Assembly (NCBI GenBank): GCA_036796575.1
Contig: DAIRCR010000002.1
Location: forward strand, 155,393-219,392
Direction: 5' to 3'
Source: Candidatus Nanopelagicales bacterium
GTDB taxonomy: Bacteria; Actinomycetota; Actinomycetes; S36-B12; UBA5976
DNA length: 64,000 nt
In this document: positions 31,162-59,540 of the stretch, piece after piece
Layout of the letters: every line of letters starts with the position of its first letter
How positions within the stretch are numbered: the first letter of the stretch is position 1
The notes under the pieces: generated by a model
Database searches by the model: none
Told to the model about the DNA's origin: nothing
What the model saw: the letters and a program-made list of their open reading frames with translations, nothing else
Made by a program: the position numbers and the translations under genes

Positions 31162-31530
31162 CTAAACCTTCTCTGCAATTACATAAGCGATTGCAACCGG
31201 ACCATCATGACTGAGCGAGACATGCCAATTAGTTACGCCTTGGTCGTCAGCAACTTTAGCTACTGAGCCACGAACTGAAATTTGTGGTGCGCCGCCATTG
31301 CTGACCTCGCAGTCATGCCATTCCATACCAACTGGAGCACCTAATGCTTTAGCCACTGCTTCTTTAACGGCAAAGCGGCCAGCTAATGAAATCAATGGCA
31401 ATTGATGACCTTCGGCGCTAGTTTGCTCCGCTTTTGTGAATAGCCGATCGATAATTCCAGGGGTTCGCTCTACGACGCCTGAAAAGCGTGCCAAGTCCAC
31501 GACATCAACACCGATTCCAACTATGGCCAT
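31162..31530 (-). CDS. acpS: Holo-ACP synthase
   Basis: GIGVDVV, AGRFAVKEA, SLSHD. Confidence 0.94.
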   Translation of the reverse strand: MAIVGIGVDVVDLARFSGVVERTPGIIDRLFTKAEQTSAEGHQLPLISLAGRFAVKEAVAKALGAPVGMEWHDCEVSNGGAPQISVRGSVAKVADDQGVTNWHVSLSHDGPVAIAYVIAEKV

Positions 31531-31718
31531 GTCTTAACTTTGCCGTGAATACTGGATTTTTCAAACTTGGCCCAATAGATCCCAGCAATACCAAGGCAGG
31601 TAGTTATGTCATTTTTGTAACACAGGTAACTCTGGCTACAGTGGAGGTATCGGTGCTGTTGAGCGGAAGCAACAGCAACGAGTACAAGTTCGAATAAGCC
31701 ATCAGGTACTTTTTATCT

Positions 31719-32096
31719 ATGGCTACAAATATCGGCGCATACTTTGAAATCCCGGTTACTGACCTCGATCGAGCAATCAATTTCTATCAATCGCTCCTAG
31801 GTATTGAACTAGAGCGCGGCTCAATTCACGGCTACGAGATGGCGTTTTTCCCATTTGAAGATAATGGTGCCGGCATTAGCGGCGCCCTTTGTAAAGGTGA
31901 TGTTTACAAGCCTTCTATCGAAGGCTGCTTTATCTATCTATTCACTAGCGACATTGACGGAATATTGAGTAAAGCTGTTGCGCTTGGCTCAGAAATTCTT
32001 TTCGAGAAAACTGATGCGGGCGACTGTTTCGTTGCCGAAGTCAAAGATTCAGAAGGAAATCGGATTTGCTTTACGACAAGGCACCAAGCCGAGTAA
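31719..32096 (+). CDS. VOC (glyoxalase/bleomycin resistance) family protein
   Basis: YFEIPVTDLDRAINFY ... DSEGNRI. Confidence 0.85.
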   Translation: MATNIGAYFEIPVTDLDRAINFYQSLLGIELERGSIHGYEMAFFPFEDNGAGISGALCKGDVYKPSIEGCFIYLFTSDIDGILSKAVALGSEILFEKTDAGDCFVAEVKDSEGNRICFTTRHQAE

Positions 32097-32113
32097 CGAA
32101 CTACCAGTTTCTA

Positions 32114-32295
32114 TTGGTCGAATAACTTCTTTCAGAAGTAAGCGCAGGATTTTCTTGAAAAATCCTGCGCAAATAAACACTGCCGACTTGGTCGAGTAAT
32201 TGCCTCTGGCAATAAACGTAGGATTTTCTTGAAAAATCCTACGCAAATAAACACTGCTGACTTGGTTGAATAACTTCTTTCAGAAGTTATTCAAC
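32114..32295. repeat. Diverged 74-bp tandem repeat x2.4 made of hairpins; last hairpin overlaps the glmS stop
   Basis: TTGGTYGARTAA at 32114, 32188 and 32262; stems described in findings. Confidence 0.92.
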
Positions 32296-34128
32296 TGTGA
32301 CGCTCTTGGCCAAGTTTCTTGGCTGATCAACGTCGTAACCCTTAACCGTTGCCATCTCACACGAGAAAATCTGCAATGGAACTGTGGCAACTAATGGCTG
32401 CATTAAAGCTGGGACCTTTGGTAGACGAATTATGTGGTCGGAGAATTCATTAATTGATTCATCGCCCTCTTCAGCAAGCACGATAGTCAGTGCGCCGCGA
32501 GCTCGGACTTCCTGAATATTCGAAACGATCTTGTCGTGCAACTCATCATCCTGAGGTGGCACAACCACAAACACTGGGATGCCATCTTCAATCAATGCAA
32601 TCGGACCGTGCTTTAGTTCCCCGGCAGCAAAGCCTTCCGCGTGCATGTAAGCCAATTCCTTGAGCTTCAATGCACCTTCAAGTGCAACTGGGAACCCAAC
32701 ACTTCGCCCCAAGAAAAGCACGGATTGCTTGTTAATCAATTCTTTGGCAATTGCCTTAACGCCTTCAGTTGTATCCAGAACTAAGTCGATCATGCTTGGC
32801 ATGTCACTGAGCTCAAGTGCGACTGTGGCTGCATCTTTGCCGTAACCCGTTCCTCGAGTTTGGGCTAAGTACATTGCGAATAAGTAGCACGCAACAATCT
32901 GAGTTAAGAACGCCTTGGTCGAAGCCACAGCAATTTCAGGTCCAGCGTGCGTGTAAATAACGGCATCGCTTTCGCGTGGAATTGTTGAACCGTTGCTGTT
33001 ACAGATAGCCAAAACTTTGGCGCCTTGTTCGCGGGCGTAACGCATTGCCATCAAAGTGTCCATGGTTTCACCGGATTGGCTTATCGCAACGACCAAAGTT
33101 GTTGGCGTCAAAATCGGATCGCGGTATCTAAATTCGCTGGCCAACTCAACTTCACAAGGAATCCGAGTCCAGTGTTCGATTGCATACTTGGCAATCAAAC
33201 CGGAGTGATACGCCGTGCCACACGCAGTGATGATGATTTTGTCGATGGTCTTAAGGAAGGCATCGTCAAGACCTAAATCTGCAAGCGTTACTTTTCCAGA
33301 CTTATCAATGCGACCAAGCAAAGTGTCAGCAACTGCCTTTGGCTGCTCTGCAATTTCCTTAAGCATGAATAAATCAAAGCCACCCTTTTCGGCAGCAGCT
33401 GCATCCCAAGTGACTTCGTATTCGGTGTATTCAGCTGGCTTGCCATAAAAGTCAGTTACGTCAATTGAGTTAGGTGTGATCTCAACGATTTGATCCTGGC
33501 CAAGTTCAATTGCATTTCGAGTGTGGGCAATAAATGCCGCCACATCGGAAGCTAGGAAGTTTTCACCATCTCCACGTCCAACAACAAGAGGTGAATTTCG
33601 GCGCGCTGCAACGACAACATCAGGTGTATCAGCATGAACAACGACCAATGTGAAAGCACCGGTAAGAACTTGGCAAACTTCCCGAAGTGCATCAGCAAGT
33701 CCAGGTGTGGTTTTCATTTGCTTCGAAAGTAAGTGAGCCACAACTTCAGTATCAGTTTGGCTGCGAAGTGTGACGCCATCGGCAATTAACTTGTCGCGAA
33801 GCATTGCAAAGTTTTCGATAATGCCGTTATGGATAACAGCAATTGAACCATCTTCACTTACGTGCGGATGAGCATTGACATCGTTTGGAGCGCCATGCGT
33901 TGCCCAACGAGTGTGACCAATTCCAGTGTGTGATGGTGAGATTGGGCTGTCTACTAACTCAGCTTCTAGGTTGGCTAGCTTGCCAGCCTTCTTGCGAGTT
34001 TGGATTGCCTGTTCGGAAACTATTGCGATACCTGCGGAGTCATAGCCCCGGTATTCCAATCGGCGCAGGCCTTCAATGACTACATTTTGGGCTTGTTGCG
34101 GGCCGACATATCCAACGATTCCGCACAT
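32287..34128 (-). CDS. glmS: Glutamine--fructose-6-phosphate aminotransferase
   Basis: MCGIVG, EYRGYDSAG, HTRWATHG, SQSGET, PRNLAKSVTVE. Confidence 0.98.
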   Translation of the reverse strand: MCGIVGYVGPQQAQNVVIEGLRRLEYRGYDSAGIAIVSEQAIQTRKKAGKLANLEAELVDSPISPSHTGIGHTRWATHGAPNDVNAHPHVSEDGSIAVIHNGIIENFAMLRDKLIADGVTLRSQTDTEVVAHLLSKQMKTTPGLADALREVCQVLTGAFTLVVVHADTPDVVVAARRNSPLVVGRGDGENFLASDVAAFIAHTRNAIELGQDQIVEITPNSIDVTDFYGKPAEYTEYEVTWDAAAAEKGGFDLFMLKEIAEQPKAVADTLLGRIDKSGKVTLADLGLDDAFLKTIDKIIITACGTAYHSGLIAKYAIEHWTRIPCEVELASEFRYRDPILTPTTLVVAISQSGETMDTLMAMRYAREQGAKVLAICNSNGSTIPRESDAVIYTHAGPEIAVASTKAFLTQIVACYLFAMYLAQTRGTGYGKDAATVALELSDMPSMIDLVLDTTEGVKAIAKELINKQSVLFLGRSVGFPVALEGALKLKELAYMHAEGFAAGELKHGPIALIEDGIPVFVVVPPQDDELHDKIVSNIQEVRARGALTIVLAEEGDESINEFSDHIIRLPKVPALMQPLVATVPLQIFSCEMATVKGYDVDQPRNLAKSVTVE

Positions 34129-36713: not shown

Positions 36714-37937
36714 ATGAAAGTCAGCCGGCGCCCCCTTTACCTGCTCGAGGGAGCAAACGCCCTGTCCGGGCTCAGTAACGCGATTGCCATCATCACGGTT
36801 CCGTGGCTCATCTTTGAGCGCACCGGATCAGCTACCCAAGCGGGCATTGTGGTCGCGGCATCTGCGATTCCAGGAATCATCATTTCGCCGTTTGTTGGCG
36901 CATTAATCGATCACTACGGTCGCAAGCGAGTTTCTATTGGTTCCGACTTGCTGTCAGCACTGTCAGTAATGCTGTTTCCAATTTGGGATTCACTTTTTGG
37001 TTTAACGTTCGCATCGATCGCAACATTTGCAGTGCTTGGCGCAGCATTTGATCCAGCTGGTTACACCGCCCGTAAGTCTTTGATTCCCGATGTAGCAAAA
37101 GCCAGCAACACTTCCATGGACAAACTTAACTCTTGGCATGAAGCAGTGTTTTCTGGTGGCTGGGTGTTGGGACCTGCAATAGGTGCGATAGCTATCTCAC
37201 TTTTTGGTGCCGCGAACTCAATGTGGATTGTTTTTGTTGCATTTATTCTGGCCATAATTTTGATCTCAATGTTGCATGTAGGTGATCTTGGCCTGGAACA
37301 TCGCGAGGAGATTGGCGACCAAGAAAAGTTTTGGACGAGTACGTTACGAGGCTTACAGGTTTTGAAATCTGATAAGGCAATGTACTACTTAACTCTGTCA
37401 ATTGTTTTCTTGGCCATGGTTTACCTGCCTACCGAGTCAGTTGTTTTACCCAAGTACTTTTCAGATATTGATGATCCGCGAGGCTATGGTTACGTGTTGT
37501 CATCAATGGCAGCCGGAGGCATCGTAACGACCCTCGCTTATCCAAAGTTAGTGAAGCATTTTAAGAAACGAACTATCGTCATCGGAGCGCTAGCTGCAAC
37601 TTCGGTTGCCATGATTCCGATGACTTTCTTTCCGCCAATTGGATTGTTCGTACTCGCTGGATTCTTACTTGGGCTTGGTTGGGGTCCAATGAATCCGCTC
37701 ATGAATTCCGTGGTTCAACAACGAGTTGCGCCGCACATTCAAGGCCGAGTATTTGGCGTGCAAACTTCCCTGTTCTATGCCAGCGGACCGATCGGAATGT
37801 TTGTAACTGGTGTGAGTGTTGATGCATTTGGTGTACGTCCGGTCTATATTGCAGCAGTTTCAATCCTGATTGTCTTCCAGCTATTCATAATGTTGTTACC
37901 AGATCTCCGCGATTTAGATCGTGAAGCGCAATACTAA
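36714..37937 (+). CDS. MFS transporter (Tap/MefA-like H+ antiporter type)
   Basis: About 12 hydrophobic segments, GALIDHYGRKR motif A, QGRVFG. Confidence 0.85.
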   Translation: MKVSRRPLYLLEGANALSGLSNAIAIITVPWLIFERTGSATQAGIVVAASAIPGIIISPFVGALIDHYGRKRVSIGSDLLSALSVMLFPIWDSLFGLTFASIATFAVLGAAFDPAGYTARKSLIPDVAKASNTSMDKLNSWHEAVFSGGWVLGPAIGAIAISLFGAANSMWIVFVAFILAIILISMLHVGDLGLEHREEIGDQEKFWTSTLRGLQVLKSDKAMYYLTLSIVFLAMVYLPTESVVLPKYFSDIDDPRGYGYVLSSMAAGGIVTTLAYPKLVKHFKKRTIVIGALAATSVAMIPMTFFPPIGLFVLAGFLLGLGWGPMNPLMNSVVQQRVAPHIQGRVFGVQTSLFYASGPIGMFVTGVSVDAFGVRPVYIAAVSILIVFQLFIMLLPDLRDLDREAQY

Positions 37938-37941
37938 ATAC

Positions 37942-39066
37942 ATGAGTCGACCTACTCTCGATAACTGGATGCTGCCCGGCAATACTTTTTGGTCATTTCG
38001 ACATGTTCGGGAATTGATTCCTACTGCGCAGGTTGATTGCGCCAACTCACCTCGAGAGCTCAACAAGAAAATCAATTCCGCACTTGGTGATGTTTCAGTA
38101 GAAACTCACATTGGCACAAAGACAATTTCCGAGTACCTGCCAAGTTCCAGCACTGACTCGTTCACTGTGGCTAAAGGTGAAGATTTGGTTTTCGAATGGC
38201 TAGCTCCAGGAGTTAGCGATGTTGAACCACATTTGATTTTTAGCGTTACCAAATCATTCACTGGAATGCTCGTGGGTTCTTTGGTGCAAGAAGGCTTAAT
38301 CGATGTTGATGCCTTAGTTACCAAATATGTCCCGGAGATTTCTGACAGCGGCTTTGGCGATGCAACAGTTCGTAACTTGCTAGACATGGCTGCCAGCTAT
38401 CAATTCGAAGAGGACTACACCCCCGGTCCAGACATCATTGCTTATCGCCATTCTGTTGGTTGGTATCCAGCGCCACTAGGTTCACCAAACTTGCATGACT
38501 TCATCGCTTCCCGAAAGAAAGAAGGCGAACACGGGCAGAAGTTCCGTTACATGTCACCAACAACTGATTTGGTTGGTTGGGTAATTGAAGCAGCCAGTGG
38601 CATGCCATATGCCGAAGCGCTATCTAAATTTATTTGGAGCAAGATTGGGTCAGAGGCTCCAGGTCACATCACTGTCGATCGCCAAGGCTCTCCCCGAGCT
38701 GCTGGCGGACTGTCGGTAATCCCCCGAGACTTAGTTCGCTTTGGCATGATGATGCGCGATGGTGGCATGGGAACTGTTGATCCAACCTTCCTCGAAGATG
38801 CCTTCCAGGGTGGCAGCGACGAGCAATGGGCAACTGGCGACTTCAAGGATTTCTTTGTTGGTGGGCGCTACCGATCCTTCTGTTACAAACCAGGGGTAGA
38901 TCCAGATGTGATCATGGGTATCGGAATTCACGGTCAGATGCTTTATGTTGATCGCCCGCGCGGAGTTGTTGTTGCCAAGCAGTCGTCTTGGCCAAACCCA
39001 GACTCAGAAGAAATGCACCTCGATGCATTTCACGCCTGCCGGGCAATCGCCCACGCTCTTGGCTAG
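37942..39066 (+). CDS. Serine hydrolase, NylB (6-aminohexanoate-dimer hydrolase)-like, beta-lactamase class C fold
   Basis: PTLDNW, SVTK, EDY, FRYMSPTTD, GIGIHGQ, KQSSWP. Confidence 0.85.
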   Translation: MSRPTLDNWMLPGNTFWSFRHVRELIPTAQVDCANSPRELNKKINSALGDVSVETHIGTKTISEYLPSSSTDSFTVAKGEDLVFEWLAPGVSDVEPHLIFSVTKSFTGMLVGSLVQEGLIDVDALVTKYVPEISDSGFGDATVRNLLDMAASYQFEEDYTPGPDIIAYRHSVGWYPAPLGSPNLHDFIASRKKEGEHGQKFRYMSPTTDLVGWVIEAASGMPYAEALSKFIWSKIGSEAPGHITVDRQGSPRAAGGLSVIPRDLVRFGMMMRDGGMGTVDPTFLEDAFQGGSDEQWATGDFKDFFVGGRYRSFCYKPGVDPDVIMGIGIHGQMLYVDRPRGVVVAKQSSWPNPDSEEMHLDAFHACRAIAHALG

Positions 39067-39069
39067 CTT

Positions 39070-39167
39070 CAGGTAATTACGCCTGTAATTCCCAGTGCCT
39101 ACTGCAGGTAATTACGCGTGTAATTCCCAGTGCCTACTGCAGGTAATTACGCGTGTAATTCCCAGTG
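39070..39167. repeat. Tandem repeat, 35-bp unit x2.8, overlapping the 3' end of the ABM gene
   Basis: CAGGTAATTACGCSTGTAATTCCCAGTGCCTACTG at 39070, 39105 and 39140 (partial). Confidence 0.95.
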
Positions 39168-58283: not shown

Positions 58284-58309
58284 GTTGGTGGCCCTTTCGG
58301 GCCACCAAC
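58284..58309 (-). terminator. GAAA-tetraloop hairpin downstream of tuf (no U-tract)
   Basis: Minus strand GTTGGTGGCCC-GAAA-GGGCCACCAAC, perfect 11-bp stem. Confidence 0.5.
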
Positions 58310-58346: not shown

Positions 58347-59540
58347 TTACTTGATGATCTTGGTTACGCGACCGGCGCCAACAGTGCGGCCACCTTCGCG
58401 GATTGCGAAACGCAGACCTTCGTCCATAGCGATTGACTGAATCAACGCAACGGTCATTTCAGTGTTGTCGCCAGGCATAACCATTTCGGTTCCGCTTGGA
58501 AGCGTTACTACACCAGTTACGTCCGTGGTACGGAAGTAGAACTGTGGACGGTAGTTGTCGAAGAATGGTGTGTGACGGCCGCCTTCATCCTTGGAAAGGA
58601 TGTAAACGTTCGCTTCGAAGTCAGTGTGAGGATTAACTGAGCCTGGGTGGCAAACAACCTGGCCACGCTCAATGTCTTCACGCTTGGTTCCACGAAGAAG
58701 TAGACCTACGTTTTCGCCAGCGCGACCTTCATCAAGAAGTTTGCGGAACATTTCGACACCGGTAACGGTTGTCTTCTGAATGTCTGGACGAATACCTACG
58801 ATTTCAACTTCTTCGTTGACCTTGACGATGCCCTGTTCGATACGACCAGTAACAACGGTTCCACGACCTGTGATGGTGAAAACGTCTTCAACTGGCATAA
58901 GGAATGGCTTATCAACTTCACGAGCTGGAGTTGGGATGTAAGTGTCAACAGCAGTCATTAGATCAAGAATTGACTGACCCCACTTTGCATCACCCTGAAG
59001 TGCTGGGAATGCAGCTACGCGAACAACAGGAATGTCGTCGCCTGGGAATTCGTAGGCACTTAGAAGTTCACGAACTTCCATTTCTACAAGTTCAATCAGT
59101 TCTTCGTCGTCAACCATGTCGCACTTGTTTAGCGCAACAACGATTGCAGGAACGCCAACCTGACGAGCAAGTAGAACGTGTTCCTTGGTCTGAGGCATTG
59201 GGCCGTCAGTCGCTGCAACTACAAGAATTGCACCGTCCATCTGTGCCGCGCCGGTGATCATGTTCTTGATGTAGTCCGCGTGACCTGGGCAGTCAACGTG
59301 CGCATAGTGACGCACTTCTGTCTGGTACTCAACGTGGGCGATCGAAATCGTGATACCGCGCTGACGCTCTTCAGGTGCCTTATCGATCATGTCGAAAGGT
59401 GTGAATGGGTTTACATCTGGGTATGCATCGTGCAGCACCTTAGTGATGGCAGCAGTCAGCGTTGTCTTGCCGTGGTCGATGTGACCGATGGTGCCGATGT
59501 TTACGTGCGGTTTTGTCCGCTCAAACTTCGCCTTTGCCAC
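58347..59540 (-). CDS. tuf: Elongation factor Tu
   Basis: [18 protein letters not shown]. Confidence 0.99.

Follow-up and report, generated by a model that had tools for sequence, protein, structure and literature searches.

REP/BIME elements of Proteobacteria stabilise the mRNA upstream of them, occur as tens to hundreds of dispersed copies and are linked to RAYT genes. Intrinsic terminators place a stem-loop after the stop codon on the sense strand, and for actinobacteria stem-loop 3' ends that lack a U tract have been reported (PMC8269248). Perfect stems may also have a mutational origin, as template switching creates or repairs them and can introduce multi-base compensatory changes in one step (PMC8794818). 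A fourth point of comparison is given by attTn7 and the islands found at tRNA and tmRNA genes. The 74-nt repeat described here lies downstream of glmS in a 64-kb window (the window being the whole stretch of 64,000 nucleotides that was analysed), and it is a real, locally conserved structured element combined with a copy-number-variable module. Most likely it represents a terminator or 3'-end RNA module of local extent that has undergone copying or recombination, and not a genome-wide mobile repeat.

The minus-strand gene order in the window, rplM-rpsI-glmM-glmS followed by acpS-alr-tsaE-tsaB, is typical of actinobacteria. The repeat occupies the 190-nt gap between the stop codons of two convergent genes:

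32287-34128, minus strand: glmS, glutamine--fructose-6-phosphate transaminase, from the ORF list (NCBIfam TIGR01135 and NF001484, E = 4e-262)
31719-32096, plus strand: VOC/glyoxalase-fold gene of 125 aa, convergent with glmS (Pfam PF00903, E = 4e-9)

Among the matches listed, the GlmS proteins nearest to that of the window were found in uncultured freshwater metagenomes and in MAGs that carry the labels Nanopelagicales, Actinomycetales or Actinobacteria. The feature is the glmS 3' untranslated region of an uncultured freshwater actinobacterium related to Nanopelagicales.

An earlier note on this DNA had described a direct repeat with a period of 74 nt, and the repeat is present as described, with units at 32114-32187 (unit 1) and 32188-32261 (unit 2) that are about 81-82% identical and a third, partial copy of 26 nt at 32262-32287 that shares 96% identity with unit 1. 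TRF at score 30 missed it, while a second repeat search detected it. A period of 74 nt is not divisible by 3, and a coding repeat was rejected for that reason. On the glmS strand, a unit has the consensus order A tip, 3' arm TTAYTCRAC, CAA, linker GTCRGCAGTGTTTATTKG, hairpin B and YTT, and the array resolves into the following parts:

32265-32295, minus strand: hairpin A at the stop codon (A3), the conserved core, a 31-nt perfect palindrome of 14 bp, -15.6 kcal/mol
32214-32287, minus strand: proximal 74-nt unit, with a CTTCT-type A tip, 3' arm TTATTCAAC, CAA, linker, hairpin B2 and TTT
32140-32213, minus strand: distal 74-nt unit, with a TTGCC-type A tip, orphan 3' arm TTACTCGAC, CAA, linker, hairpin B1 and CTT
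32114-32139, minus strand: trailing partial unit, with a CTTCT-type A tip, orphan 3' arm TTATTCGAC and CAA, and then TAGAAACTGG
32245-32266, minus strand: linker copy 2, sense CCAAGTCAGCAGTGTTTATTTG
32171-32192, minus strand: linker copy 1, sense CCAAGTCGGCAGTGTTTATTTG, strongly conserved between species
32217-32243, minus strand: hairpin B2, 11-13 bp, -15.0 kcal/mol, followed by UUUAUU on the glmS-sense strand
32142-32170, minus strand: hairpin B1, 12-13 bp, -19.5 kcal/mol, flagged by a terminator scan of the minus strand
32199-32213, no strand assigned: displaced hairpin A2, ATTGCC-tct-GGCAAT, 6 bp, -5.4 kcal/mol, z = -2.6
32125-32139, no strand assigned: displaced hairpin A1, ACTTCT-ttc-AGAAGT, 6 bp, -3.8 kcal/mol, z = -1.0

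The stop-codon hairpin, GTTGAATAACTTCT-gaa-AGAAGTTATTCAAC, holds the last two codons of glmS and the stop (GTT GAA TAA) within its 5' arm. The perfect 14-bp stem that the earlier note had assigned to unit 3 is real, as are both 6-bp A hairpins, which have the sequences it gave. Its two B hairpins were likewise recovered, the stem being 12 bp long in unit 1 and one pair shorter (11 bp) in unit 2, together with the C-G to T-A double change that distinguishes B2 from B1 (32145/32167 vs 32219/32241). A CGAC-ttg-GTCG mini-hairpin said to span the unit junction exists at the junction of units 1 and 2 but neither at that of units 2 and 3 nor in the related lineage L011. Linker copy 1 does not pair in a simple hairpin model. 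The sequence that follows the trailing unit, TAGAAACTGG, is also found directly 3' of hairpin A in lineage L016, which itself has no 74-nt unit.

The two full units differ at 13 positions, which include four compensated Watson-Crick stem pairs and one pair that is broken. Were 13 substitutions placed at random, four or more compensated pairs would arise with P of about 1e-5. The region 32090-32310 folds with z = -7.6 as minus-strand RNA, -7.8 as plus-strand RNA and -9.1 as DNA (0 of 200 shuffles as stable), so that both strands fold equally well and folding gives no strand discrimination. Only four perfect hairpins of at least 9 bp occur in the 64-kb window, three of them in the repeat region. 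The whole intergenic sequence is identical in nine independent metagenome contigs from different samples and assemblers, and an assembly artefact, already dismissed in the earlier note, is therefore not at issue.

Which of these parts is kept between species? Orthologous glmS 3' ends were taken from relatives whose GlmS proteins are 94-99% identical. At fourfold-degenerate glmS sites the relatives differ from the window by 0.14 to 0.6, and they are therefore separate species-level lineages. In ten lineages the glmS stop codon lies within a stem-loop that is exactly 31 nt long; the fourfold-site difference of these lineages from the window is 0.32-0.6 (L215, where glmS is truncated, being excluded). 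In the alignment of hairpin A, 95.7% of 140 cells are paired and seven of the 14 pairs have changed on both sides (24 cells). None of 500 shuffles equalled this, and shifting the partner by 1-3 columns lowered the paired fraction to 14-46%. The idea of a structure that is kept while its sequence changes holds most clearly for the stop hairpin at these ten loci. The displaced 6-bp A hairpins are weak when taken alone.

Two of the covarying pairs of hairpin A use synonymous glmS codons (GTT/GTC with AAC/GAC, and GAA/GAG with TTC/CTC). The tips of the hairpin fall into several types: CTTCT in the window and L221, TTGCC in L011, L215 and L225, ATCT in L017 and L222, CTGAC in L016, TCGA in L012 and CCAAC in L219. 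Orthologous covariation beyond controls, as expected of a structured cis-acting RNA, is seen for hairpin A only; hairpin B offers one double change among five copies. Stop-spanning stems of more than 5 bp are absent from about 200 other glmS 3' ends, taken from other actinobacteria and diverse metagenomes. Among the close relatives, hairpin A is degenerate in L217 and L223, partly mismatched in L219, and reduced in L216 to 9 bp that pair with the VOC stop region. Since it is degenerate or lost in some close relatives, hairpin A is dispensable. A stop-codon readthrough signal was also rejected, since a hairpin that holds the stop within its 5' arm would probably be unwound by the time the ribosome arrives.

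The gap holds further palindromic sequences in some relatives. Inverted paralogues of hairpin A (A') occur in L011, L017 and L222, where A' and hairpin A form a larger palindrome; a third is found in L017, and compensated pairs are seen again. At the glmS end of the relative with 94% GlmS identity (L219/L220, 2700-2790), the last 18 nt including the stop (ACAGTTGAATAACCAACG) are duplicated, the copy lying in direct orientation 42 nt downstream.

Watson-Crick pairs fill 153 of 169 stem cells, and G.U pairs number five of the sense against one of the antisense type, a difference that is not significant. As the stems are almost all Watson-Crick, pairing could be kept at the level of DNA, not RNA. 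The main rival to an RNA-level reading, though an unlikely one, is that the hairpins are DNA-level palindromes without an RNA function, made and kept perfect by template switching during replication in the form of quasi-palindrome correction; such hairpins would stimulate slippage and so yield direct and inverted duplications, the region would be a mutational hot spot, and the covariation would be a mutational signature. Many stems are indeed perfect over 13-14 bp, and the B stems of the window (12 bp), L221 (10 bp) and L225 (10 bp) differ from each other symmetrically in both arms. The inverted copies A', the direct copy of 18 nt at the end of glmS in L219 and the loss of the hairpin from some close relatives all agree with this reading, and the process itself is documented (PMC8794818). 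However, a neutral palindrome in a compact genome should decay or be deleted, whereas here a length of exactly 31 nt and about 96% pairing are kept while neutral sites are near saturation. The unpaired linker is conserved as well, which template switching does not explain. Moreover, template switching is compatible with selection and is no substitute for it. We prefer to read the hairpins as stem-loops of the glmS 3' UTR, in which selection would keep hairpin A paired across species, probably aided by template-switch mutation since almost all pairs are Watson-Crick.

The 74-nt unit behaves differently from hairpin A, being a head-to-tail tandem repeat of variable number among relatives. L016, L215, L216 and L012 have no copy, L221 has one, L011 has 1.16, L225 has 1.35 and the window has 2.35. 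The distal unit of the window shares 92% identity with the unit of L011 and 89% with that of L225, vs 81% with its own neighbour; for the proximal unit, the values are 88% with the unit of L221 and 86% with that of L011. The same holds for the A tips, as CTTCT/AGAAG sits at the glmS stop in L221 and TTGCC/GGCAA in L011, L215 and L225. In L225, glmS ends in GTC GAG TAA and its stop hairpin, GTCGAGTAATTGCC-aga-GGCAATTACTCGAC, equals the unit 2 hairpin plus flank exactly. The orphan flank of unit 2, TTACTCGAC, has no partner in the window and is the exact partner of the L225 glmS ending GTCGAGTAA; in other words, A2 together with the flank at 32191-32199 (GTCGAGTAA, plus strand) makes up the whole stop hairpin of L225. 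Similarly, the unit 1 flank TTATTCGAC, next to A1 at 32117-32125 (GTCGAATAA on the plus strand), fits the glmS alleles of L016, L221 and L215, which have the ending GTC GAA TAA. Units 1 and 2 are therefore displaced stop hairpins of other alleles. The compensated pairs that the earlier note saw between these units are real, but they are not compensation in place after duplication, since the tip types exist as alleles elsewhere; judged from these matches, the covariation between units is that of pre-existing stop-codon hairpin alleles set side by side.

A mosaic structure is also apparent beyond the array. Identity between window and L016 is 79-91% over glmS but reaches 97-99% over the VOC gene and acpS leader, and the switch occurs at the hairpin array. 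In terms of coordinates, 31650-32103 matches the Lake Mendota MAG from which L016 derives (JBIIMD010000070.1) at 97-99%, against only 79-91% for the adjacent glmS. The comparison points to a VOC segment that was recently exchanged between lineages. What follows glmS is itself variable: the VOC gene in some lineages, nothing in others and a different gene (230 aa) in L013.

How could such an array arise? The most likely cause is slipped or unequal recombination, acting on diverged alleles at a junction prone to exchange between lineages. In some lineages the linker and hairpin B form a module 3' of hairpin A, and each new proximal unit would have displaced the older stop hairpin downstream. Having lost its 5' partner, the displaced hairpin would persist as a weak 6-bp hairpin with an orphan 3' arm. 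The X-Y-X order of the tips speaks against the simplest version of this path, as one simple unequal crossover does not give it. The number of unit copies is itself probably not important.

Alternatively, the units may be what site-specific insertion into the stop hairpin of glmS has left behind, following the logic of attTn7 or of tRNA and tmRNA islands, with the VOC gene as cargo: an incoming element would bring its own target hairpin and displace the old one, leaving the 74-nt unit as a remnant. The orphan 3' arms of units 1 and 2, which match the terminal-codon alleles of glmS in other lineages, are what such insertions would leave, and the variable gene content after glmS and the recent exchange of the VOC segment with its breakpoint at the array fit equally. 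In L011, a 62-nt insert lies between 12-nt direct repeats, TTATTCAACCAA, and a parallel exists in the 78-nt repeats next to the tmRNA gene, in each of which the first 10 nt copy the 3' end of tmRNA. We nevertheless regard this origin as improbable. No integrase or transposase was seen in the 39 scanned window proteins or among the Pfam labels of the relatives' loci, the units lack terminal inverted repeats, and the order of R'' and R' is the reverse of that in an integron attC. Homologous or unequal recombination of diverged alleles, the origin favoured here, gives the same pattern.

Two other tandem repeats occur in the window. At 2519-2690, in the interval that separates the 3' end of the tmRNA gene (2066-2431) from the stop codon of a convergent gene for a short-chain dehydrogenase, a 78-nt unit is present in 2.2 copies that are 98% identical. 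The first nucleotides of each unit, TCCCGGCACC, repeat tmRNA positions 2415-2424 exactly (four matches vs 0.07 expected). These repeats look like att-type footprints of elements that integrate at ssrA; no integrase was found near them among the scanned window proteins. The tmRNA gene itself is followed by a terminator with a canonical T run, at about 2440-2470. At 39070-39167, directly after the stop of a beta-lactamase-fold gene (37921-39066), a 35-nt unit is present in 2.8 copies that are 98% identical, each holding an AATTAC-gcgt-GTAATT palindrome. This brings to three the intergenic tandem repeats that carry small hairpins and lie 3' of a gene in these 64 kb.

The linker and hairpin B suggest a further alternative, in which a small RNA is released from the glmS 3' UTR. 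In such an RNA the linker would serve as the single-stranded seed and hairpin B as the terminator, hairpin A would mark a processing site or a boundary, and the window would encode two copies. Between species that differ at 32-48% of fourfold sites, the linker differs at 1-3 of 22 positions, and its core, CAGTGTTTATTTGC, is also found in L017 before a different hairpin. Hairpin B with its U-rich tail, in L011 and at B2, completes a classic layout of seed plus terminator. The candidate is quite unlikely all the same: at least seven of the 11 related lineages sampled, including the closest, L216, lack the module, the conservation could reflect recent exchange as for the VOC segment, and neither a promoter-like site in 31500-32600 nor a match to an Rfam family was found. 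Taken jointly, the two ways in which the 74-nt unit would be a functional module (a small RNA, or the footprint of a site-specific system at the glmS stop hairpin) are unlikely. The second of them, covered by the same joint judgement, would amount to an actinobacterial counterpart of attTn7 with the VOC gene as cargo.

The preferred reading, for which we see an even chance, is that of terminator or stabiliser stem-loops in the glmS 3' UTR, expanded by duplication or unequal recombination. Three stem-loops follow or enclose the stop on the sense strand (A3 at -15.6, B2 at -15.0 and B1 at -19.5 kcal/mol). Hairpin B is terminator-like on the glmS strand, and the sequences 3' of the B stems are UUUAUU for B2, UUUUAUCU for the L011 copy and CUUACUUCU for B1. 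Hairpin A is AT-rich and is followed by CAAGUC or CAAUAG, without a U tract. The stems of A3, B2 and B1 may end the glmS transcript, shield it from 3' exonucleases or both, and stems of this strength could insulate glmS from the convergent VOC gene. Against a terminator reading stands the linker, whose conservation exceeds what a plain spacer between terminators would require. The earlier note had offered a modular 3'-UTR RNA as one of three options, and it is the best fit among them, with a putative role in termination or stabilisation to judge by the anatomy.

A stem-loop without a U tail occurs at another gene end in the window. The perfect 11-bp, GC-rich hairpin GTTGGTGGCCC-gaaa-GGGCCACCAAC at 58284-58309 (-24 kcal/mol) follows the stop codon of a 397-aa gene (58347-59540) at a distance of 38 nt, and that gene is probably tuf by its length and position.

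The other two options in the earlier note were a REP/BIME-like element and an ssDNA substrate for a HUH/RAYT-type nuclease. A REP/BIME-like dispersed palindrome mobilised by a RAYT (HUH/Y1) transposase would account for clustered palindromes in both orientations, in a 3' extragenic region and in numbers that vary among relatives, and the 31-nt palindromes fall within the size range of REP/BIME palindromes (20-40 nt, imperfect). To search for dispersed copies, a covariance model was built from 12 hairpins and run with filters off on the 64-kb window and on 84 kb of relatives. The stop-codon hairpin scores 41.7 bits (E = 2e-8); no other family member was found in the window, the best other match (E = 1.3) being unit 2 itself, and none outside the glmS-acpS gap in the 84 kb of relatives. 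Exact and 3-mismatch searches of the window for hairpin B and for the linker returned nothing beyond the two copies, and a search for linker plus B in IMG/VR viral contigs gave no match. For this genome, the search thus covered about 64 kb.

Protein searches lead in the same direction. No transposase, integrase or HUH/Y1 domain was identified by NCBIfam and Pfam in 39 of the 71 listed window ORFs (the 32 others lie mostly in the right-hand third of the window), nor was an integrase or transposase present among the Pfam labels of the genes called at the relatives' loci. Apart from the repeat region, the only long perfect hairpin in the window is that downstream of the presumed tuf. The palindrome, moreover, is anchored on coding sequence and covaries with it. 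Neither the dispersed element nor the HUH/RAYT substrate is supported by the DNA and proteins searched, and we consider a REP/RAYT origin highly improbable.

Known families were considered as well. In Rfam, only the tmRNA of the window passes its gathering threshold, and within 31450-32400 the best E-value is 1.3 and every match falls far below gathering. A MITE was rejected: L011 has a 12-nt direct repeat, but there are no terminal inverted repeats and no other copies. An integron attC was suggested by the fit of GTTGAAT/ATTCAAC to GTTRRRY/RYYYAAC, and was rejected because both strands read 5'-GTTGAAT...ATTCAAC-3', with R'' and R' in reversed order; the scanned window proteins included no integrase. 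The arms of a dif site are spaced 6-8 nt apart, and a dif/Xer site was rejected because the hairpin arms here are 13 nt apart.

The acpS side of the gap holds a conserved block of its own. At about 31540-31690 on the minus strand, upstream of acpS, about 155 nt are conserved, and the first 80 nt or so are almost invariant in eight species with a fourfold glmS difference of up to about 0.6. The block contains a 10-bp hairpin, GTGCTGTTG/CAACAGCAC with the loop CTTCCGCT, which shows no covariation because the sequence is invariant. It has no Rfam match at an E-value of 5 or below, and a small ORF was rejected, there being no in-frame start and frame-breaking indels in relatives. The block is a candidate leader, promoter or unknown RNA element.

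If the preferred reading of glmS 3'-UTR stem-loops is true, a stem-loop that encloses a stop codon covaries with the synonymous codons of an essential gene. The 'compensatory' differences between tandem units would then stem from juxtaposed alleles, which calls for caution in making covariation calls on repeats, and a hairpin-rich junction would mark a recombination breakpoint in freshwater actinobacteria. The weight of the locus would grow if linker plus B turned out to be a regulatory RNA of glmS, or the site a dedicated insertion target.

How does the locus compare with the systems described so far? With REP/BIME elements it shares clusters of 30-40-nt palindromes in alternating orientation, an extragenic 3' position and a variable copy number. 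It differs in that all copies lie in one intergenic gap, the palindrome sits on the glmS stop and no RAYT gene was found. With attTn7 and the tRNA and tmRNA islands it has in common the variable genes after glmS and the displaced copies of the target gene end, whereas the displaced pieces here are the complementary hairpin arm and not direct copies of the gene end; unlike attTn7, the site shows no Tn7-like genes, no integrase among the scanned proteins and no transposon ends. Template-switch hot spots likewise combine perfect inverted repeats, multi-base 'compensatory' changes and nearby inverted or direct duplications (PMC8794818), but they represent a mutational mechanism that alone cannot explain the persistence of the 31-nt length and of the linker. 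Intrinsic terminators and 3' stem-loops resemble the locus in their stable stem-loops after the stop, convergent genes and covarying stems, as well as in the U-rich tail at B2 and at the L011 copy of B. The U-tract-less 'I-shaped' type of Actinobacteria also has its likeness in the hairpin without a U tail at the presumed tuf (PMC8269248). In contrast to such terminators, hairpin A starts in coding sequence, encloses the stop, is AT-rich and has no U tract, and the modules are repeated with a sequence-conserved, unpaired linker of 22 nt. The repeat is of a kind already known, a structured 3' UTR or terminator with tandem expansion, and not a new class of element.
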